A DNA stretch of 64,000 bases from assembly GCA_950096895.1 (NCBI GenBank), contig CATNBF010000001.1:20853-84852 (forward strand). Reading direction: 5' to 3'. Both the position numbers and the translations under genes were made by a program. The notes beneath the pieces were generated by a model that saw only the letters and a program-made list of their open reading frames with translations, ran no database searches and had not been told where the DNA came from. This stretch comes from an uncultured bacterium. GTDB taxonomy: Bacteria; Pseudomonadota; Alphaproteobacteria; Rs-D84. This document shows positions 217 to 49,931 of this stretch, one piece after another. How positions within the stretch are numbered: the stretch's first letter is position 1; each line of letters starts with the position of its first letter.

Positions 217-258
217 CTATGCCTAATTCAAAGGGTGGTTTAGATTAGGCATAGTTTT
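217..258 (+). terminator. leader hairpin (ctatgcctaat / attaggcatag, 16-nt loop) followed by TTTT in this cassette orientation
   Basis: 11-bp stem at 217-227 / 244-254, then tttt at 255-258. The same hairpin at locus 3 is followed by ttaggtc instead. Confidence 0.5.
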
Positions 259-321
259 CGTTCCAAAAATCCCCATTTTCTGCCCCTTTTTTATGACTTA
301 ACTATGCCTAATCTAAACCAC
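235..321. promoter_or_regulatory. invertible DNA switch, OFF-like orientation (IRL 235-256, cassette 257-299, IRR 300-321)
   Basis: Perfect 22-bp inverted repeat gtggtttagattaggcatagtt / aactatgcctaatctaaaccac. The 43-bp cassette is the reverse complement of the cassette at 14927-14976. Confidence 0.75.
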
Positions 322-1041
322 GGTTTTTTATTATTGGCCGCGGTTATGGCGGCAGCCCCGGCATGCGGGGCAATCCCGGGCGGGATTTGCGGCAAGCTAA
401 GCCCGGATTATCCCTTAAATGGTGTTGTTGTACCGGGTGGCGCGTTTATAAATGGGGCCATAGTGCCCGATAAACATTATTCTTGCGCATCTGATGTCTG
501 GGAATTAGACGATGTTGTCAGCAATTACCAATGCATTGAATTCACCGATATTCGATTAAAAAGTACAGAAAAAAACAAAGAATTTTATACATTAAGTGGA
601 TGTACATACGCCGGATTTGGTTGTCATCTGAACAATATTGTATACACCAAGGCTGGCACCCCACAATGCCGCGAATGCACCGGAAATCGCGTGGTGTATC
701 CCCTGCGTCGTACATAATATGAAGATATTAATGGTGTCCACAACGCATATATCCATAACAAAACTGTGTGCGAATACTGTGACAATGGATATTACATCAT
801 GATGCCAGAAATAAATCCCGGCACAGGCCCCACATGCAGAAAATGCCCCGATGCAGATTTTCCCGCAGATGAAATATACTCGTGGGGTGATGGCGGTGTT
901 GATACATGCATGGCATTGATTTATATCGATCCAGACACTGATGGCGTTCATGGTCAAGATGATTCTGGGCAATATATCATCACATATAATTCAGATGACA
1001 TGATGTATGAAGATACAATTGCGTGCCCCTATCGGCCATAA
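304..1041 (+). pseudogene. Cys-rich secreted protein, paralog 1, interrupted by an in-frame TAA at 715-717
   Basis: It starts with arm-encoded MPNLNHGF plus a signal peptide (LLLAAVMAAAPACG). ORFs 304-717 and 766-1041 share one frame and are separated only by a single TAA (..PLRRT*YEDINGVHNAYIHNKTVCEYCDNGYY..). CxxC and CxxCP motifs occur on both sides. Confidence 0.6.
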
Positions 1042-13649: not shown

Positions 13650-13690
13650 TCCTGGTATTGCGGGGAATTTAACTATGCCTAATCCAAAAG

Positions 13691-13777
13691 GACGTTTTTC
13701 TGGCATAGTTTTTTGAAAAATAAAATCCCAGATTTCTGCACTTTTTTATCCCCCATGATACGCCTAATCTAAACGTC
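13691..13777. promoter_or_regulatory. decayed copy of the invertible switch, OFF-like orientation
   Basis: The left arm is gacgtttttctggcatagtt, with its core deleted. The right arm is atacgcctaatctaaacgtc. The cassette at 13711-13757 has the same orientation as locus 1, and the leader hairpin is followed by tttttt. Confidence 0.6.
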
Positions 13778-13789
13778 GGTTTTTTATTA

Positions 13790-14726
13790 TTGGCCGGCAT
13801 CATTATGATGACGCCCACCAAAATGGCAAACGCGGACACAGAATGTTATCAATGTCGCATTACCCAGAAATTTTATGGTGGCTGTCCAAAGCCCAGCGAA
13901 ATCAGCAATAATCCCTATTTCACGTATGAAAAATGCATCTGTACCCAAACAACACCACCGACCTGTATGATTATGGATGTTTTTAATGGATGCCCACTGA
14001 AAAATGCGGTTTATTGCCAATGCACCACTGGCCCATGCACCAGCGGCGGTGGTTCAACCGGGGGCGATGGGGGCGATACATGCGAAAAATTACCATGCAG
14101 CGCGTGCGATGCGAACGACGGCACCTGGCGCAGCAACGGCACCGGATATGAAATAAAAAAAGACCGGTGGCACATGCAGTGGCAACACATGTAATTCCAA
14201 TGGAACCTGTTCGGGGGAAACGGTTGAATATCGATGTGCCACCGGATATTGCGGTGAAACAACCGACGGCAAAACCGGATGTACGGCATTTTCTAGATCG
14301 GAACTAAGCACTGGATACTGTTTCTTTCAATTGGCATCTGGCATGCCATGCCCCCCGAATGCGGTGTCTTGTAAAGCCGGGGTCAGTGGATTCATGAAAG
14401 GATCCTGTCCGTCAGGCGTCACGGGTTGCACATGCGAATACACCAAACCGATCGCAAATACAAATACCGTTAACGGATATTCGGTATCATTACCATCATC
14501 CGGACAATGTAAAATCACCAACGGACCCATACAATTATGCGCCGCGGGATATTACGGCAATCCAGACAGCGGCACATGCCAAAAATGCCCGTCACCAGGC
14601 ACATCTGATGTCTTTGGCATCGGCACAGGCACCAATACAACAATTGACAAGTGTTATATTCCCGCCGGGACCCGCGGTTCAGACACCAGTGGAACATTTG
14701 AATACACCGCCCAGTGCGCCTATTGA
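13790..14726 (+). pseudogene. Cys-rich secreted protein, paralog 2, with lost ATG and a frameshift at an A7 tract
   Basis: The family start ATG CCT AAT is ACG CCT AAT here (13760-13768). ORF 13790-14194 and the open frame 14157-14726 overlap and differ by +1 at aaaaaaa (14155-14161). Confidence 0.6.
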
Positions 14727-14864: not shown

Positions 14865-14907
14865 TCCTGTGGCGTTACCAGAAAATTTACTATGCCTAAT
14901 CCAAAGG

Positions 14908-14995
14908 GTGGTTTAGATTAGGCATAGTTAGGTCACAAAAAAAGGTGCAGAAAATGGGGATTTTTGGAAAGAGATTTATGCCTAATCTAAACCAC
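14908..14995. promoter_or_regulatory. invertible DNA switch, ON-like orientation (IRL 14908-14926, cassette 14927-14976, IRR 14977-14995)
   Basis: Perfect 19-bp inverted repeat. The cassette is the reverse complement of 257-299. It places AAGGTG (14942-14947), 6 nt and ATG (14954) in frame with the arm-encoded MPNLNH. Confidence 0.8.
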
Positions 14996-16216
14996 GGGTT
15001 TATTCTGGGGATGGCGGTTTTATTGCCATGCGCGGCATTTGGTGCAACATGTGATGGGCAAACCCAAAATAATTGCCCCAGTGGTTGTTATTGGGCGACA
15101 ATCGGGCTACCTAATGCATCGACTTCCTGTAGAGCATGTCCCCATGGTTATGATTACTCTACAAACGGCGCAAGCCAACAAGGGCAATGCTATAAAACTG
15201 CATCGTTTCCCCCATATCAAGCGATAAACTGCTATTATCGCTCAGACACCGATTGTCAAAATATCCCGAAATGCGGGGATACTCAGAACTGCACGCAGTG
15301 TGATTTTGTATGCACTAATGATGCCCATATAGAGCATGATGATGGTAACCAAAACATTCCCTGTAAATGCGCCTTAGATGAACGTGATTGCGCCGATCAA
15401 GATAAATATGGCGGGGCCGACGGAATCGCCAGCTGCACCGAAAAATGGAACGCGGACAACCAAGAATATTTTCTAAATAAATTAACTTGCAAGTCAAACT
15501 ATATCAAACATAATAATCAATGCATCATAAATGAAAAAGATTGTGATTCAATGCCAACACATGCCAAGACTTGTAAAATGATATGGGATTCGGAAAAAAA
15601 CGACTATGTAATGCACTTGACATGTGACAAAAACTATATTGCCATTGATAATAAGTGCAAAAATATTACGGAGACGGATTGTCTGACATATATCCTGGGA
15701 CAGCAGGAGCTAAAATCACTATACCAGGCTTGCACCACCAATCATGGCAATTTTCATATTACCGGAAATTTGACAACGGAATCGGGACAAGCATCCCTGC
15801 GTAATTGTCTTTGTAAAAAAACGGGGGCCACCCAAGTGTCCGGTGGTAAATGTTACCAGGCCTATGCATTAGTGGGATCGACCGGCAATTATACATGGGC
15901 CGATAACACACATTGGGCAGATTGTGTATGCAAGGATTACTTTTGCCCGAACGAAACCCATGGATGTGCAATCCCGGCCGAAAATGAATATTGGGACAAA
16001 GATTCAAGGGAATGCCAAACCTGTCCAATGGGAACCAAAACCAAATTCGGCAATGACACCGATGCCTATGACAGAAATCCAAAACGCACCGCCGGATCCG
16101 CCGCATGTTTCGTAGACCGCACGACCACATTCTGTGATGCATTTGGGTGTTTTAATCTGGAGGATATTTCCGATACCAATCGGTCATATTTGATAGAGAA
16201 TACAAACAACAAATAA
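14954..16216 (+). CDS. Cys-rich secreted protein, paralog 3 (intact)
   Basis: MGIFGKRF-MPNLNHGFILGMAVLLPCAAFG signal peptide, then about 400 aa rich in CxxC and C-x2-CP-x-G motifs. The alternative start is the arm ATG at 14978; the track ORF starts at GTG 14945. Confidence 0.8.
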   Translation: MGIFGKRFMPNLNHGFILGMAVLLPCAAFGATCDGQTQNNCPSGCYWATIGLPNASTSCRACPHGYDYSTNGASQQGQCYKTASFPPYQAINCYYRSDTDCQNIPKCGDTQNCTQCDFVCTNDAHIEHDDGNQNIPCKCALDERDCADQDKYGGADGIASCTEKWNADNQEYFLNKLTCKSNYIKHNNQCIINEKDCDSMPTHAKTCKMIWDSEKNDYVMHLTCDKNYIAIDNKCKNITETDCLTYILGQQELKSLYQACTTNHGNFHITGNLTTESGQASLRNCLCKKTGATQVSGGKCYQAYALVGSTGNYTWADNTHWADCVCKDYFCPNETHGCAIPAENEYWDKDSRECQTCPMGTKTKFGNDTDAYDRNPKRTAGSAACFVDRTTTFCDAFGCFNLEDISDTNRSYLIENTNNK

Positions 16217-19877: not shown

Positions 19878-21782
19878 ATGAGAATGATTAACCGCATCTT
19901 GACAGTTTTTTTAGCCGTCGTAACGATGGCAACATCGGCGCATGCCGTACCGGCCGCGTGCAAGAGCGAATTGTATCGTCGTGCCCATCCGGAAAAATGC
20001 ACCGAAAAAAAATCAAATTCTTTTCTGTCGCGCAACGCGATCTGGATTGGTGGTGGGGCCGTGGCGGCCGGCGCAGTGGCCTTGGTTGCAATGGCGGCCG
20101 GTGGCGGATCCAGCTCTGGGGCCACGGCACATGTGCAATCGACCAATGATTCAAACTTTGCATTTGGGGCACCCAATGTTCCCCAGTATTCTTTGCCCAC
20201 ATTAAGCATTTATAACCGCGTGGGCTATACAGATCCGAAACTGTTGGCGGCGGCCCGTAAAACAACCCGCTATGCCCGTAATGCGGCCCAATACGAAGAT
20301 ATTCGCCTGGCCTATTCCTTGGCACGTGGATATACCGGCAAAAATTCAACCATCGCCATTTTGGACACGGGCGACTATGGCTATCATGGAACCGCAGTCA
20401 AAAACATTGCCGGCGGTGCCATTGCCCCGGATGTAAAAATCAACGAACACAAAATCGTTGATAACCACGGTGAATTCATTACATACGACAAAATTGCGAA
20501 CATCATCGCCAACGATACATCTGCCAACATTTTTAACGCCAGCTGGGGCACAGAATCCCAGGCCGGCCTGAACGCGGCAACAATTAAAAATCGGGCGCAA
20601 ATTGTTAACCTGACCAGTGAATCTTTTGTTAACGAAATCACATCGGCGGCCCAAAATCGCGATGCCATCTTTGTCTGGGCAGCGGGCAATGACCACAAAT
20701 CCCAAAGCACGGCCTTGGCCGCCATGCCGTTGGTGGTACCAGAACTGGATGGGCACTTTATTAATGTTGTCGCATGGGACAGCCGGACCAATTCGCTGGC
20801 CGATTACAGCAATGCATGCGGCGCAACCCAAATGTATTGCATCACGGCCCCGGGCACAGATATGAACGTTGGCATTGGCAGCGCATCCGGGACCAGCTTT
20901 GCTGCGCCGATTGTTTCAGCCGCGGTGGCGGTAATTCGTGAAGCATTCCCATACATGACCGCCGGCGAAATTACCAGTCTGTTGTTCACGACCGCCCGTG
21001 ATTTGGGCACCCCGGGTGTTGATGAAATTTATGGGTGGGGCATGCTGGATCTGGAACGGGCGCCACGACCGGTGGGGGCCACATTGGTCTCTATCGACGA
21101 TAACGTCATGGCACCAATGCAGACCGCCCGCGCCGCCGGTGTTATTGGCCGCCAGATCAAGTCCGCCAACCTGCGCTTTGCATTCTTTGACAGCTTTGGT
21201 CGTGCCTTTGACGCCAAATTAAACGACAGTATTAATTTCCGCCCAATGGGTCGTGCCATTGAACGCGTCCGCGGTAATGCCGACATGTCTGTATCATTGG
21301 GCAACATGGATTTTGGATTCACACGCAGCAACCTGTTGGCATCTGATGGATTCTTGCGCACAGGTGAACGTGACCTGATGGGCTTTGTCGGGATGCGCGG
21401 TGAAATGATGCTGGGGGATGTTCGCCTGTTCCAGCGCACACGCATGGGATTCAGTGCCCCAACCGCCGCCCGCGATTCCATGATCCGTGAATTTTCAAAT
21501 ATCATCAGTGCATCTGTCACCCTGGGGGCAACGTATGGGGACTGGACATTCACAGTGGGTGCCCCAGAAACAATCGTTTCAGGTGACATGACACTGCGTC
21601 TGGCGACCGGTCGTGCGGCCGATGGACAAATCCAGTATCGCAATCATCGCGTTTCTTTGGTTGAAACCCGCCCGGCAATGGAATACACCGCGAAATACAA
21701 GTTCATCACCGCCGGTTATATTGATAATCCGTCCGGAACCGATGAATTCTATGTCATGGCACGCGGCCAGGTCAGCTTTTAA
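19878..21782 (+). CDS. subtilisin-like (S8) serine protease with a C-terminal autotransporter-like beta domain
   Basis: Triad contexts ILDTGD, YHGTAV and GTSFAAPIVSAA. Signal peptide MRMINRILTVFLAVVTMATSAHA. The C-terminus ends ..ARGQVSF, an aromatic terminus typical of OMPs. Confidence 0.75.
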   Translation: MRMINRILTVFLAVVTMATSAHAVPAACKSELYRRAHPEKCTEKKSNSFLSRNAIWIGGGAVAAGAVALVAMAAGGGSSSGATAHVQSTNDSNFAFGAPNVPQYSLPTLSIYNRVGYTDPKLLAAARKTTRYARNAAQYEDIRLAYSLARGYTGKNSTIAILDTGDYGYHGTAVKNIAGGAIAPDVKINEHKIVDNHGEFITYDKIANIIANDTSANIFNASWGTESQAGLNAATIKNRAQIVNLTSESFVNEITSAAQNRDAIFVWAAGNDHKSQSTALAAMPLVVPELDGHFINVVAWDSRTNSLADYSNACGATQMYCITAPGTDMNVGIGSASGTSFAAPIVSAAVAVIREAFPYMTAGEITSLLFTTARDLGTPGVDEIYGWGMLDLERAPRPVGATLVSIDDNVMAPMQTARAAGVIGRQIKSANLRFAFFDSFGRAFDAKLNDSINFRPMGRAIERVRGNADMSVSLGNMDFGFTRSNLLASDGFLRTGERDLMGFVGMRGEMMLGDVRLFQRTRMGFSAPTAARDSMIREFSNIISASVTLGATYGDWTFTVGAPETIVSGDMTLRLATGRAADGQIQYRNHRVSLVETRPAMEYTAKYKFITAGYIDNPSGTDEFYVMARGQVSF

Positions 21783-22423
21783 CCATCGACATTTTCATAA
21801 CTGACATTGAATGTTTCTAAATCAGGGATTTCAATCCCCCGCCCCATCAAGAATCGATTCAACGTATCACGATGGACACGTAATCGCCGCGCCAAGATAT
21901 AACGACTGTTACCACTGTATAACTGTTGACAGATATATTTTTCACGCGTGGCCAGTTTGGCGGCATTACGACTGCCCAGGGGCCGACCCACATGACGTCC
22001 TTCGGATTTAACACGGGCCAAGGCCTCCTTGGTGCGTTGCGATATCAAATTCCGTTCAATTTCCGCCGACAATCCAAATGCAAATGCCAAAACCTTGCTG
22101 GTGATATCACTGCCCAGGCGATAATTATCCTTGATCGTCCAAACGCGTGCCCCAATATCCATACAGTAGTGCAAAATACTCATAATCTGTAATAAATTAC
22201 GCCCCAGACGGGATAGTTCTGATGCAATAATTAAATCGTCTTTGCCAATTTTTTTAATCAGTCGCCCCAACTTTCGCTTGTTCAAATCAACCGTCGACGA
22301 AATTGTTTCTTCGATCCATTTATCGACCACAATATTTTCTTTTTCACAGAACTTTTGTATTTCAAAGCGTTGATTCTCCGTCGTTTGGTGGTCGGTCGAA
22401 ACGCGGATATATCCGTAAATCAC
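21779..22423 (-). CDS. small serine recombinase (resolvase/invertase family)
   Basis: N-terminal MIYGYIRVSTDHQTTENQ (catalytic Ser motif), ELSRLGRN, and a C-terminal HTH (ILARRLRVHRDTLNRFL). 214 aa. Confidence 0.85.
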   Translation of the reverse strand: MIYGYIRVSTDHQTTENQRFEIQKFCEKENIVVDKWIEETISSTVDLNKRKLGRLIKKIGKDDLIIASELSRLGRNLLQIMSILHYCMDIGARVWTIKDNYRLGSDITSKVLAFAFGLSAEIERNLISQRTKEALARVKSEGRHVGRPLGSRNAAKLATREKYICQQLYSGNSRYILARRLRVHRDTLNRFLMGRGIEIPDLETFNVSYENVDG

Positions 22424-22610
22424 GTTTTGCCTCCTTTGGCTGGTTGTACAATTATTTTTTTTGTATACGCTTATATTCCTAAATTACTTTTTGAAATATG
22501 CAAGTATTTGTTTTTACGTATTTTTTATGAATTTATTCCAGATCAAATAAAATGCTTGATGTCGTATAAAAAACTTTACTATCATGATTATTAAAGAAAG
22601 GTGGGATACA

Positions 22611-25600
22611 ATGGCACACAAATCATCAAACACACGAAATTCTGGACATTTGGTTAAAAAAACGCGCACCCGGGTTGGATTATGGGGACGTCTTGTTTAT
22701 GCCGCGATCGCGGTTATCGTCGTGACCGCTGGGGGATTTGCATGGCATCACCACACCAAGGCAAACGAACAAACCGCCACATATAAATTAACACTGGATA
22801 CGCCAACACCCGCTCGATACATGGATACCAACCCTATTATCATGACGGTTGGACCAAATCGTGTTGCCATGCCAGAAATTAATCCCGACCGGGATATGGC
22901 GGCCCCAACACCATTGCGTATTTATTATAGCTTTGAATCAGGTAATTACGCGCCCGCCATGCGCATGGATTTAGATGCGGCAAATTTGGCCAACGCAATA
23001 AAAATGACACCCGCCATACGGGGAAAATGGACCATGCCTAATCCCAACATGCTGATGTTTACGCCCGATGGAAATTGGCCCGCCGACACAAAATTCCGGA
23101 TTAAAATTTCCCCCCGATTAATCAACAGCGATGTTCATGTTAATTCACGCAAAGTCACCTTTGTAACACCACGCGTTGCCGGCACCGTCGACAGCTTTGA
23201 CGTCTATCCCACCGGCCGGGGCACAGTTACCGGGGTTGGGGTTGTTTCTTTTAATTATCCTGTATCAGGTATCTCAAACGCGACCACGGTTAAATTAAAC
23301 GGCAACCGAATCCATTCTGATGTGCGCATGGATACCAATAACCGCACCGCGATTATAACCACCCAACCAATTCCTGTGCGTGATATCGAACAATCATTGT
23401 CACTGGGGATATCAGGTGCCACGCCGACCCGCATATCGGCCAACACAACGATCGCCGCGGCGGATAACTTTTTCAAAATTACCGATATCACCACCGCCGC
23501 CGTTGATGATGAATCCGGTACCCCCCGCCAATTAGTTATTATTACAACCAGTGCCGCCGTCCGCGCCGATACAGATTGGCAAAAATTTATTGATGTATAC
23601 TTGCTGCCGCGGCAACGGGATACAGATGAACGATCATCCCATCGATGGGCCACAGACGAAATTACACCCGATGTCTTGAAAAAGTCCAAGAAGTTATCAA
23701 TCACCCCAACAAATTTAATCAGCCCCAATGGCACATATCAATATGCATTTTCATATGATGTATCAGATGCAAATACGCGCTATATCTATGTGACGGTGCG
23801 CGAAGGGATTATGTCTGATATTGGTTTTGCAACCGGGGCAACAGTTGATAAAACCATGACAGTCCCATATCCGCAACGCAGTGTTAAAATCGCCGGCGAT
23901 GGGGCGTTGTTAAGTCTGAATGGGGATCAAAAAATCGGCATCGTCGCCCGGGGTGGTGTCAATGCGGCATACATTAATGTATCCAAGATCAAAGATACGG
24001 AAATCAATCATTTAATTTCGCAAACGTATAATATCTTTACACCCTTGAACTTTAAGTCTTGGTCATTCGGCGTTGATGATATGGCGGTCGTATTCAAAAA
24101 AAGAATTCCTTTTTCCAATACATCACCAACACGCGTTAACTATGCATCGGTGGATTTGGGCGAATACCTGAATAAAACACCGGGCGATAAAACAGGGATC
24201 TTTGTTATCCAATCTGGCACAACGCAATCGGCGGCTGATTATAATGACCGACGGTTAATCTTGATGACCAATATGGGCATTATTCGCAAGATTAATTCAA
24301 ATGGATCATCGGCGGTCTTTGTATCATTATTAGATTCTGGTGGTCCGGCCGGTGGTATTGATGTATCTGTGTTGGGGCGCAATGGAAATACCGTTTGGAC
24401 CGGCGTAACCAATGAACGCGGACGCGTGGATATTCCGGTATTAAAATGGAACGAATACCGAGGCGCACGCGAACCCATCGCGATCGTTGCACGTAATGGT
24501 TCTGATGTGTGCTTTGTCCCCTATGATGCGGGGGGCGAACAAATGGTCGAATATTCCAAGTTCGATACAGGCGGCGTTTATGCCACCCCCAATGGCGCAT
24601 TGAATGCCTATGTCTTTTCAGACCGTGGTATTTATCGCCCAGGTCATGAATTAATCATCGGGGCAATTGTTCAATCAGAAAGCGCAAAATCAACCGCCGG
24701 CATCCCTGTCCGTGTCATGATCGATGATGCACGCGGGCGCAGTATCTTGGATAAAAAAATATCCCTGGGTACTGATGGCATGTTTGATGTGCGCTATCGC
24801 CTGGGGGCGGATGCCCCATTGGGGGAATATACGGTAACCCTGTATTCCATCAACAGTCGTCATAACACCAATGACGACGTTATCGGTCGGACCACGTTCC
24901 GCGTTGCAGAATTTACCCCCGATACGATGAAAATCAATACAAAAATCAATAATGCATCCGACGTGGGCTGGATTTCCCCATCAGACATGACGGCAAATGT
25001 CACATTAAATAACCTGTTTGGCACGCCGGCACAAAATCGACGCATTACCGCACGGGCGACACTAAGCCCCAGTCAATTCCGCTTTGATCAATTTCCCGGC
25101 TATGCCTTTACCCCCAATATTATTGGTAATTCGGGTCTGGCCGCGAATTCTGGGGTTGTCCCACGACCAATAACCATGGAATTGGCCGATGTTCGTACCA
25201 ACGATAATGGGGATGCGGTTATCAAGATTGACTTTGATCGTTCCATCCCATCGGGCACATATGTATTAAATCTGAACGTACGGGGATTCGATGGTGATGG
25301 CGGACGCAATGTCGAAATGACCACCACTGCCCGCGTTTCTGATGCGACACACCTGGTTGGATGGCGGGCGGATGGTAATTTAGACTATATCAATCGGGGC
25401 ACAACACGATCTGTGCACATTGTGTCTGTGGACACCAGCGGCACCGCCGCCCCCACAGATGATTGGCGCATGCGCGTGATTGCCCGCGAAAACTTGACCA
25501 GTTTGATCAAGGACGCATCTGGATATTATAAATATCAGTCAACCATCCGGGATCGCGTGATTCGCACCACCCCATTAACCATCCCAAAAGATGGGCAATC

Positions 25601-45762: not shown

Positions 45763-46035
45763 TTAGTTCAACGCATCTTTCAACGCTTTACCCGGCTTGA
45801 ATTTCGGCTGGGTCGATGCCGGAATCTTAATCGCAGCACCTGTTTGCGGGTTGCGGCCCGTTGTCGCCTTGCGCTTTGCGGTTGTGAATGTACCGAAACC
45901 AACCAAGCGAACTTCGCCTTTCTTTTTCAGAACTTTGGTAACTGTGTTAATGAACGCGTCCAAGCAAGCAGCCGCGGTCGATTTTGTTACATCAACTTCA
46001 TTCGCAATTGCTTCGATCAATTGTAATTTGTTCAT
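45763..46035 (-). CDS. hupB: HU family DNA-binding protein
   Basis: MNKLQLIEAIA..GFGTFTTAKRKATTGRNPQTGAAIKIPA. GGAG SD before this ATG. Confidence 0.9.
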   Translation of the reverse strand: MNKLQLIEAIANEVDVTKSTAAACLDAFINTVTKVLKKKGEVRLVGFGTFTTAKRKATTGRNPQTGAAIKIPASTQPKFKPGKALKDALN

Positions 46036-49007: not shown

Positions 49008-49931
49008 TTATTCATCATCATCCATCCCGGCACGGGGGTGGGCATTGTTATAGATTTTTGAAATTTCGGCCATATTTACCCGCGTATACAATTGCGTTGT
49101 CGACAATGACGAATGCCCCAATAATTCTTGCAGGGTACGTAAATCTGCCCCATCGGACAGTAATGCCGTCGCAAACGTATGACGCAACGCATGCGGCGTC
49201 ACATAATCTGGCAATTGCAAATAATGACGCAACTTTTCAACCACTTTTTGCGCCATTCGGGCCGTCATTACATGGCCACGCACACTGCAAAACAAAGGAT
49301 CATCGGGCCCATTGCCATCCGGGCGCACGGCAATGTATGCATCAATTGCGTCATAGACCGCCGGCAAAACCGGAATTAGACGCTCTTTGGATCCCTTGCC
49401 CACAATACGTAACGTATCTGGTCGGGATGCCACATCACGATTGGTCAGCCCCAATGCCTCTGACACACGTAACCCGCACCCAAACAGCACCACCACCAAC
49501 GCCCAATCCCGGGCGGCAATCCATTGACAATTTGAATCAATCACAGAAATGGCATCATGCATATCTGCGACATCTGTTGATTCAATGGCCTTGGACAGCG
49601 TTCGTGGCACCTTTGGCGCGGCGATTAATTCAATATATTCGTTTTGGATTTGATGTGTTTTACGCAAGAATTTATAAAACGTTCGCAACGCAGCCAATGC
49701 ACGTGCCGTAGATTTATGTGTCATATGACGCCGAACCCGGTCGGCCATCCATGCCCGAAAGACCGTTGTATCGGCCGTCCCCATATCATGGGGCAAAATA
49801 TCCGCGCCACGATATATGGCATAAAATTTTAACATATCGGCAATATCACGCTGATATGCGTTAATCGTGTGCGCGGAATATTTTTTTACACACGCCAAAT
49901 AATCTAAAAATTCGGCGATAATATTATTCAT
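49008..49931 (-). CDS. XerC/XerD-type tyrosine recombinase
   Basis: C-terminal HALRHTFAT and LLGHSSLSTTQLYTRV motifs. 307 aa. Confidence 0.85.
   Translation of the reverse strand: MNNIIAEFLDYLACVKKYSAHTINAYQRDIADMLKFYAIYRGADILPHDMGTADTTVFRAWMADRVRRHMTHKSTARALAALRTFYKFLRKTHQIQNEYIELIAAPKVPRTLSKAIESTDVADMHDAISVIDSNCQWIAARDWALVVVLFGCGLRVSEALGLTNRDVASRPDTLRIVGKGSKERLIPVLPAVYDAIDAYIAVRPDGNGPDDPLFCSVRGHVMTARMAQKVVEKLRHYLQLPDYVTPHALRHTFATALLSDGADLRTLQELLGHSSLSTTQLYTRVNMAEISKIYNNAHPRAGMDDDE

Follow-up and report, generated by a model that had tools for sequence, protein, structure and literature searches.

The gene at positions 21779-22423 of the window (the whole 64,000-nt stretch of DNA that was analysed) encodes what is, by sequence and modelled structure, an intact small serine recombinase with the predicted fold, assigned to the Mpi master-invertase family. 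Of the candidates for the enzyme that would flip about 30 switches located before genes for surface and secreted proteins, it is the strongest. The protein is probably active and would serve in trans as a genome-wide invertase of approximately 28-30 cassettes. An earlier note on this DNA had proposed that a serine invertase like Mpi serves, in trans, dispersed cassettes flanked by inverted repeats, and the proposal is supported as far as sequence analysis goes. The host is an uncultured gut alphaproteobacterium of the Enterousia group with a genome of about 1 Mb (93% complete). Enterousia (order Rs-D84) comprises uncultured, tiny-genome gut bacteria that are functionally almost undescribed, and the literature mentioning Enterousia contained nothing on recombinases or phase variation.

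The recombinase gene and its product have the following features:

21779..22423, minus strand: serine recombinase gene, assigned to the Mpi master-invertase family, 214 aa, GTG start
22430..22437, minus strand: AAAGGAGG, the ribosome-binding site as seen in the sequence itself, 6 nt ahead of the GTG start
Residues 5-13 of the product: YIRVSTDHQ with the catalytic Ser9
Residues 71-75 of the product: SRLGR motif
Residues 107-140 and 154-194 of the product: long helix and C-terminal helical DNA-binding domain, respectively, as predicted in the AlphaFold model

The reading frame and its catalytic N-terminus are present as first described, and the Pfam Resolvase domain covers residues 2-143 (1.7e-30). 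All 28 homologues compared keep S9, R7, R72 and R75. The closest solved structure by sequence is the Gin invertase (8e-13), while resolvases reach 1e-6. The NCBIfam equivalog model of the Mpi family, NF009949, reaches 296.2 bits, above its cut-off of 272, in an alignment of residues 2-196 to model positions 2-197 of 203. This cut-off was passed in one of 14 control genomes, 12 of which encode Resolvase-domain proteins, and in seven of 301 Alphaproteobacteria. Mpi itself was reportedly described by Coyne et al. in 2003 as the master DNA invertase of Bacteroides fragilis.

The small serine recombinase architecture, that is, a catalytic serine domain and a C-terminal helix-turn-helix (HTH), is found in this protein, with the HTH taken from the structural model and a paralogue. 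A C-terminal HTH had been claimed from the start; Pfam gives no significant match there in the recombinase itself (best match CENP-B_N, 0.009), but the claim holds on other grounds. The AlphaFold model (pLDDT 77.5) predicts helices at residues 154-194 after the helix at 107-140, the gamma-delta, Tn3 and Sin recombinases align to the full-length model including the DNA-binding domain (Foldseek, E ~1e-10), and the HTH is clear over the aligned stretch of the 46%-identical paralogue (HTH_28, 2e-7; HTH_7, 2e-4). Across many MAGs the recombinase is 75-89% identical, which indicates strong purifying selection. No co-variation was seen between the recognition helix (VHRDTL) and the T/G variant of the site arms, since the helix is nearly invariant and both arm variants occur within single genomes.

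Three of the switch loci are located in the window:

165-193: fixed promoter of locus 1, TTGCGT/TAGAAT
217..339, plus strand: switch locus 1, putative target, with S1 (217-254), segment (255-301) and S2 (302-339)
217-254: S1 of locus 1, a two-armed palindromic site with centre GGGTGG
302-339: S2 of locus 1, with centre CCACGG and the ATG of the downstream gene inside
13673..13795, plus strand: switch locus 2, putative target, type I, with S1 (13673-13710, centre AGGACG) and S2 (13758-13795, centre CGTCGG)
14890..15013, plus strand: switch locus 3, putative target, with S1 (14890-14927), segment (14928-14975) and S2 (14976-15013)

Approximately 28-30 cassettes of this kind were found on about 20 contigs of the genome. 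The arm motif has 62 matches in the own genome compared with 3 for a control pattern, and 28 switch loci are anchored by a promoter. The design is uniform: a fixed sigma-70-type promoter is followed by two inverted sites (S1 and S2) and then by a gene. The distance between site centres is 83-88 bp and in most cases 85 bp, which corresponds to about eight helical turns. A short core is flanked by arms of sequence TGCC(T/G)AATCYAAA or by a reduced form, CCAGAAAAA; in the own genome, the outer S2 arm is degenerate. Two cassette subtypes with the cores GGGACG and CCACCC exist, each in both orientations. The sites can be read as 11+2+11 bp with a non-palindromic central dinucleotide (GT/AC or GA/TC) that is reverse-complementary between S1 and S2 of a locus, while the adjacent 2 nt differ. 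Genes behind the switches encode cysteine-rich secreted proteins, a repeat surface protein, a GT6 glycosyltransferase and an ABC transporter. At locus 2, the inner arm of S1 is unlike the S2 arm and the start codon within S2 is ACG. The nearest cassette lies 6.8 kb from the recombinase gene; the distance of 5.6 kb to locus 3 given in the earlier note says nothing about function, as there is about one switch in every 33 kb.

In the proposed mechanism, the recombinase would act in trans on the 28-30 dispersed miniature cassettes, each with a fixed promoter on one side and, on the other, a gene whose product is secreted, located at the surface or related to glycans. Crossover is expected at the central dinucleotide, where a 2-bp staggered cut would be followed by a 180-degree rotation of subunits; a non-palindromic dinucleotide that is complementary between S1 and S2 is what these steps require of a serine recombinase. 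The consequences of flipping can be predicted from the two orientations. In the off orientation, a T-run behind the S1 hairpin would form an intrinsic terminator, and such a T-run follows the S1 hairpin of locus 1 as oriented in the window. In the on orientation, the gene would be preceded by a ribosome-binding site and a start codon, or simply by no terminator. Relative to locus 1, the segment of locus 3 is reverse-complemented; it provides the open reading frame 14945-16216 with its ribosome-binding site and start codon.

Inversion is real at two loci, as observed at contig ends and in public contigs. Within the same assembly, contig C20 ends in a sequence that, beyond 126 nt of flank in common with C21, matches the locus of C21 exactly in the flipped orientation. 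For the GT6 glycosyltransferase locus, a Logan contig of SRR28738953, an independent public sample, carries the exact reverse complement of the segment in the own genome, with identical flanks and protein; two other contigs match the own-genome orientation. Loci 2 and 3 had a single orientation in all three assemblies of the species (the window and two others). The C4 and HNH loci, which are type II switches, had one orientation in all copies found; of the loci looked up by protein in this way, only the GT6 locus gave a flipped copy.

The distribution of the gene was compared with that of the cassettes in 150 related genomes, 44 with and 106 without an orthologue of the recombinase. A cassette profile was positive in 35 of the 44 carriers and in one of the 106 non-carriers (Fisher 1.2e-24, shared ancestry ignored), and the sole positive non-carrier has a 64%-identical homologue. 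With the exact 12-mer motif (at least 5 matches), the counts were 27/44 and 0/106 (Fisher 1.6e-18, again ignoring shared ancestry). Both the arm motif with one mismatch and the exact degenerate 12-mer undercount genomes with diverged arms; the profile recovered these genomes (G020, G028, G090 and G083). Nine of the 44 carriers are without strong cassette matches, and four of them (G009, G074, G115 and G129) have none. Orthologue presence is interspersed on the local tree, so that losses act as natural knock-outs. Independent pairs on this tree were concordant in three cases and discordant in none (p = 0.25, with only three informative pairs). Cassette presence thus tracks the orthologue of the window gene and no other recombinase in the profiled set, which comprised the paralogue and the phage-type integrases. 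From these data we infer that the catalyst is the window protein rather than its paralogue or XerC/XerD.

The recombinase is the only serine recombinase in the window, as the earlier note had stated, but not in the genome, which holds two Resolvase-domain genes. The second, SR_C10 (C10:9015-9617, 200 aa), is the 46%-identical paralogue mentioned above and is likewise Mpi-like. It is improbable that this paralogue flips the cassettes or that the work is divided between the two enzymes, for example by cassette subtype. SR_C10 is of the same broad family, has a clear HTH and is about 10 kb away from a C10 switch, and the two subtypes would offer a basis for such a division; its NF009949 score of 233 bits is nevertheless below the family cut-off. 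The raw association of SR_C10-type genes with motif-rich genomes (p = 0.02) disappears when only the genus (p = 0.18) or only the orthologue carriers (p = 0.55) are considered. At E<=1e-60, they are missing from 13 of the 27 motif-rich genomes; among these 13 are G091, G120 and G133, which have 48-50 motif matches each. Moreover, both subtypes occur in genomes without the paralogue: G120, G073 and G044 combine type I with palindromic alpha-type sites.

It is quite unlikely that a tyrosine recombinase, either XerC/XerD, perhaps with an accessory factor, or an integrase, performs the inversion while the Mpi-like protein has an unrelated role. The sites can also be read as two 16-nt arms with a 6-nt spacer and then resemble dif or lox-type sites. 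The 6-nt spacers of partner sites, however, differ at two positions (GG vs CC) beside the conserved central dinucleotide, which is awkward for exchange with a 6-8-nt overlap and fine for a 2-bp serine crossover. The other recombinase of the window, 49008-49931, is XerC-like as previously described, and the switch at C17:3684 has a XerD-like gene (C17:4560-5510) about 0.9 kb away. At a density of about 30 switches per Mb, chance alone would place one of the seven recombinases within 1 kb of a switch in about one case in three. XerC and XerD are presumably universal, so their distribution would not separate them; as housekeeping genes expected in nearly all bacteria, they would not explain the loss of cassettes where the Mpi orthologue has been lost. 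Orthologues of the three phage-type integrases are absent from the motif-rich genomes G133, G121, G038 and G044. A tyrosine recombinase, RecV, does run several terminator-type switches in Clostridioides difficile (PMC5903667).

A rearrangement with no dedicated recombinase, by template switching or hairpin formation at the quasi-palindromic sites, with the Mpi gene co-inherited for other reasons, is very unlikely. The segments are very short and bounded by inverted repeats of 14-20 nt beside a perfect hairpin, features that favour strand-switching and hinder protein-mediated synapsis. Such passive events would not be expected to preserve the arms, the core and the spacing of 84-85 nt across species at about 60% PbpC identity, nor a non-palindromic, complementary central dinucleotide; nor would they explain why the cassettes go missing wherever the orthologue has been lost.

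The recombinase gene has rpsB, tsf and genes for an S8 protease, an alpha-2-macroglobulin (A2M) and PbpC as neighbours. Two features of its borders had been listed as signs of a secondary insertion:

21779..21782, unstranded: TTAA, shared by the stop codons of the S8 protease and recombinase genes, which converge here
22424..22583, unstranded: divergent intergenic region between the recombinase and A2M genes, 25.6% GC compared with 46.6% for the window

Both are as described: the stops overlap and no terminator-like site was found in 21600-22700, and the upstream region is AT-rich. The tight convergent packing is also seen in relatives. The intergenic region presumably holds the promoters of both flanking genes; a simple scan of it found no consensus promoter for the recombinase. 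The absence of a transposase, a res-like array and cargo beside the gene was likewise borne out. A recent insertion, in contrast, does not agree with the comparative data. In 16 of 16 carriers checked, including another genus, the gene occupies the slot between S8 protease and A2M in the same orientation. In the carriers compared, it is 73-88% identical while its neighbours reach 45-67%, and its GC and GC3 are unremarkable. Its distribution on the local tree is patchy, and in 10 of 10 genomes without the gene, S8 (or rpsB) directly abuts A2M. The recombinase is therefore best read, from these sequence comparisons, as an old resident of the slot that was lost several times. That it is a remnant resolvase of a mobile element beside A2M/pbpC with no role in switching is extremely improbable, for although empty sites exist and the upstream region is AT-rich, mobile-element context is lacking, slot and orientation are constant, the gene is better conserved than its neighbours with ordinary GC3, its sequence is nearer to invertases than to resolvases, and it is coupled to the switch cassettes.

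The geometry of the cassettes appears unusual for a serine invertase. The DNA between bound sites would be only about 45-50 bp, so that synapsis in a classical tetramer needs extreme bending; to our knowledge, this is far shorter than any segment inverted by Hin, Gin or Mpi. No Fis homologue was detected in the 93%-complete genome by tblastn, which suggests that the system is independent of Fis; HU-like genes are present. With about 30 loci sharing common sites, the same enzyme may at times recombine between loci. The mosaic locus C36, which combines a promoter of the C17/C21/C40 type with a C9 cassette and a C21 gene, may suggest such events. That an Mpi-type invertase works without Fis on sites 83-88 bp apart and occasionally recombines between loci is a tentative idea that may well prove wrong. 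If true, the spacing of about 85 bp implies a minimal, tightly bent synaptic geometry that is not known from serine invertases, and recombination between loci would shuffle promoters, cassettes and genes across the 1-Mb genome.

If one gene runs about 30 switches, roughly one in 30 genes would be under stochastic on/off control in a host expected to have shed regulation. This host would then share the master-invertase strategy with Bacteroides, a member of another phylum in the same habitat. The recombinase and its sites, each about 38 bp long in a cassette of about 85 bp, would form a compact, portable pair for probing the shortest invertible segment, and the natural gene-loss series would allow the fate of switches to be followed once the invertase disappears.

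Among known systems, the Tn3, gamma-delta and Sin resolvases share the two-domain fold over the full length of the protein, but here transposon context and a three-subsite res are lacking and the sequence is nearer to Gin. Hin, Gin, Cin and Pin have the fold and the catalytic motif in common with the recombinase, Gin being its best solved relative, and the present sites can be divided into two inverted half-sites with a non-palindromic core of 2 bp between them. Their half-site, TAATC-YAAA-SS, is similar to what we take to be the hix half-site, TTATC-AAAAA-CC. Hin, Gin, Cin and Pin have their genes alongside or within a single invertible segment of 1-4 kb, and they depend on Fis and an enhancer. 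The present gene, in contrast, is unlinked, with no cassette within 6 kb, and its segments measure about 85 bp.

A parallel in switch design is offered by cwpV (Cdi1) and other RecV-controlled switches of C. difficile, where the switch likewise lies between a fixed promoter and the open reading frame, one orientation forms an intrinsic terminator and one recombinase, RecV, serves several switches (PMC5903667). RecV differs in being a tyrosine recombinase, and its switches are larger and fewer.

Mpi is the master DNA invertase of B. fragilis (PMC5903667, PMC12632263), where it inverts at least 13 dispersed regions (PMC5903667), and Mpi-family genes are enriched near programmed inversions (PMC9881135). 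The present system resembles it in a small serine recombinase that passes NF009949, in a gene unlinked to its targets, in many dispersed segments flanked by inverted repeats with one site motif, in targets that govern surface or glycan-related genes, and in a gut commensal as host. It differs in that the host is an alphaproteobacterium with a 1-Mb genome, and in having about 30 proposed targets, compared with the 13 or more of B. fragilis. The cassettes of 83-88 bp contain no promoter; downstream of a fixed promoter outside, inversion would bring in or remove a terminator and a ribosome-binding site or start codon. The arms, TGCCKAATCYAAA, are presumably unlike the site sequence of B. fragilis Mpi. 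Invertible promoters with the inverted-repeat consensus of B. fragilis are thus not what is found here, which is a difference in targets and not in protein family.

The earlier note had described an isolated serine recombinase gene, and this was borne out by sequence and domain searches. The genes concerned are:

21779-22423, minus strand: recombinase ORF, 214 codons, GTG start
49008-49931: XerC-like gene, the window's other recombinase
45769-46035: gene for an HU-like DNA-bending protein, 51% identical to E. coli HupA (tblastn)
C10:9015-9617 (contig C10, outside the window), minus strand: SR_C10, an Mpi-like serine recombinase of 200 aa, 46% identical to the window's

A ribosome-binding site (AAAGGAGG) lies 6 nt 5' of the GTG start. 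The gene is flanked by rpsB, tsf and an S8 subtilase gene on one side and by the genes for a bacterial alpha-2-macroglobulin (A2M) and PbpC on the other, with neither a transposase nor a res-like array beside it. The stop codons of the S8 and recombinase genes overlap in TTAA (21779-21782), a consensus scan found no terminator in 21600-22700, and the 160-bp intergenic region 5' of the gene has a GC content of 25.6%. The Xer type assigned to the window's other recombinase was likewise upheld. The recombinase is the lone one of its kind within the window but not genome-wide: the assembly (~1.0 Mb, 41 contigs) encodes two serine recombinases, the second being SR_C10, and five tyrosine recombinases (XerC-like, XerD-like and three phage-type integrases).

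HMM searches, which the earlier note had proposed, matched the Resolvase catalytic domain at residues 2-143 (Pfam, 1.7e-30). The C-terminal HTH that it had named is weak by Pfam but present in the AlphaFold model (helices 154-194; pLDDT 77.5), and Foldseek matches this model to gamma-delta, Tn3 and Sin recombinases across the full length. The protein also passes the NCBIfam equivalog "master DNA invertase Mpi family" end to end, scoring 296.2 bits where the curated cut-off is 272. The specificity of this model was gauged on 14 control genomes and 301 sampled Alphaproteobacteria. Resolvase-domain proteins occur in 12 of the 14 controls, two of which respond to the model (Bacteroides thetaiotaomicron and Corynebacterium glutamicum) and only one of which passes the cut-off, as do only 7/301 Alphaproteobacteria. 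The model is discriminating, and by this curated test the recombinase is an Mpi-family member. The affinity to invertases rather than resolvases is also seen in the closest solved structure by sequence, Gin invertase (8e-13), with resolvases behind at ~1e-6. Homologues with 75-89% identity come from numerous MAGs whose label is "Alphaproteobacteria" or "Rickettsiales bacterium"; NCBI's pipeline already assigns several of them to the Mpi family by name. Across 28 homologues, neither the catalytic residues nor the helix VHRDTL vary.

The arm motif of the three switch cassettes in the window (217-339, 13673-13795 and 14890-15013) has 62 matches in the genome, versus 3 for a control pattern, and a promoter-anchored search found 28 switch loci with one common plan. 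After a fixed promoter (TTGTRAAAAA, ~17 nt, TATAAT) comes crossover site S1, whose two arms are inverted and enclose 6 nt. A segment of ~45 nt then leads to site S2, which has a good arm, again 6 nt, and a degenerate, T-rich arm that in most cases is part of the coding sequence. The site centres are 83-88 bp apart, mostly 85. Read as 11+2+11 bp, S1 has the central dinucleotide GT, AC or GA and S2 its reverse complement; the beta-type S2 arm is 2 nt shorter, and the register was set by eye on the CGTCGG core. Beside the dinucleotide, partner sites disagree at two bases (GG vs CC), and we infer that the pattern suits a 2-bp serine crossover more than a tyrosine overlap of 6-8 nt. Both segment orientations are found among paralogous loci of every subtype. 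In one, a T-run after the S1 hairpin, or a hairpin and T-run inside the segment, would form a terminator; in the opposite one, the gene would either receive its ribosome-binding site and start codon from the segment or just be freed of the terminator. The genes behind the switches include those for cysteine-rich secreted proteins, a repeat surface protein, a GT6 glycosyltransferase, an ABC transporter and an HNH protein. Loci with particular features are:

C5:39424-39700: switch followed by a GT6-family glycosyltransferase and an amidase (loci L059-L061), flipped in one public sample
C36:580-681: mosaic switch
C9:26922-27023: mosaic switch
C21:6536-6636: mosaic switch
C17:17313-17414: mosaic switch
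C40:4371-4471: mosaic switch

In the C36 mosaic, promoter and leader are of the C17/C21/C40 type, the inner arm and segment are those of C9, and the gene that follows is that of C21; the mosaics suggest that cassettes were exchanged between loci or that the assembly mixes strains. At locus 2 (S2 at 13758-13795) and at C21:14563, the start codon inside S2 is ACG, not ATG, and the inner S1 arm is unlike the S2 arm; these copies may be altered in expression or partly disabled. The HNH-protein locus at C20:9639 is the only one with non-complementary central dinucleotides (S1 AT, S2 GT) and may be mutationally locked; the one other contig that covers the cassette has it in the same orientation.

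Inversion really happens. The end of contig C20 shares 126 identical nt with the end of C21; beyond these, its sequence matches the far end of the C21 cassette in exact reverse complement, so both states of one locus are present in the reads. At the GT6 locus, the segment between the arms in a Logan contig (SRR28738953) is the exact reverse complement of this genome's copy, while GCA_949032065.1 and SRR30781996 have the same orientation as this genome; the flanks and a 293-aa protein are identical in flipped and unflipped copies. This switch suggests phase-variable glycan modification. S1 or S2 is also where many contigs are interrupted, in this assembly and in those of Logan. Loci 2 and 3 have one orientation across three assemblies of the species. 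Separately, C30:7542-7678 at a contig end carries a 20-nt inverted repeat (ACACAAGACTATCATGCACC) around a bidirectional terminator. The contig stops exactly at the repeat, which may be an artefact of assembly or a further invertible element.

The window's recombinase is probably the invertase of these cassettes. Among 150 genomes of the order, an orthologue (≥75% identity) is present in 44 and absent from 106. The exact core motif TGCCKAATCNAA has at least five matches in 27/44 genomes with the orthologue and 0/106 without (Fisher 1.6e-18), and a 132-nt cassette profile made from five species has strong matches in 35/44 versus 1/106 (Fisher 1.2e-24), both tests ignoring shared ancestry. The profile picks up carriers with drifted arms (G020, G028, G090, G083), and the sole cassette-positive non-carrier, G057, has a 64%-identical homologue. 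In a tree of A2M, rpsB and tsf from 22 genomes, presence and absence are interspersed, with six changes, at least four of them forced by well-supported branches. Independent sister contrasts (three concordant, none discordant, one tie; p = 0.25) are in the right direction but underpowered.

The other recombinases that were profiled, SR_C10 and the phage-type integrases, fit less well. SR_C10 has a clear HTH and reaches 233 bits on the Mpi model (NF009949), under the cut-off. Its orthologues are common in the genus without tracking the motif: 13 of the 27 motif-rich genomes lack the paralogue, and no association with cassettes remains after control for genus or orthologue status. The phage-type integrases lack orthologues in several motif-rich genomes. 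At C11:11452-11537, outside the window, an intergenic pair of 21-nt inverted repeats (AAACCACCGTTTTTTTGTTTC) 44 nt apart shares the core AAACCACCGTTT with the type II sites, though not their arms; this pair may form a further inverton or be acted on by SR_C10.

A secondary insertion beside A2M/pbpC, as the earlier note had supposed, does not hold as a recent event. The orthologue occupies the same slot beside the S8 gene, and beside A2M-PbpC where present, in 16/16 carriers examined. In 10/10 non-carriers (G113, G024, G018, G004, G087, G128, G114, G123, G030, G095; loci L024-L033), S8 or rpsB directly adjoins A2M, with a junction of ~200-350 bp and essentially no cassette matches. Identity among relatives is 73-88% for the recombinase versus 45-65% for S8 and 45-67% for A2M, and its GC3 (0.456) is ordinary next to its neighbours (0.45-0.57). 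The AT-rich upstream region and overlapping stops, taken as insertion signs, are normal in a compact genome, and tight convergent packing recurs in relatives. With the tree pattern, the simplest reading is not a recent insertion but an old resident lost several times with its cassettes. At least four separate lineages appear to have lost invertase and switches jointly.

The main physical objection to the model is that synapsis by a classical tetramer may be difficult at so short a spacing: centres 83-88 bp apart leave little DNA to loop. A spacing of 84-85 nt is kept in other species and is close to eight helical turns, so both sites would share one helix face. HU-like genes are present in the genome; a tblastn search found no Fis homologue there. 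If the model is true, synapsis over so short a spacing would be its most interesting aspect.

The Enterousia literature found makes no mention of this recombinase or its switches. Programmed inversions in general show an enrichment of Mpi-family genes nearby (PMC9881135). In B. fragilis, Mpi is a single serine invertase, unlinked to the many scattered surface-feature switches on which it acts (PMC5903667, PMC12632263). The scheme proposed in the earlier note on this example agrees with the family model, the 28 loci and the coupling of orthologue and cassettes, with the window's recombinase as putative catalyst. In contrast to B. fragilis, the host lineage and site sequence are different, the cassette is very small, and a terminator together with a ribosome-binding site or start codon is flipped rather than a promoter. 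The flipped part resembles that of cwpV in C. difficile, a switch inverted by a tyrosine recombinase.
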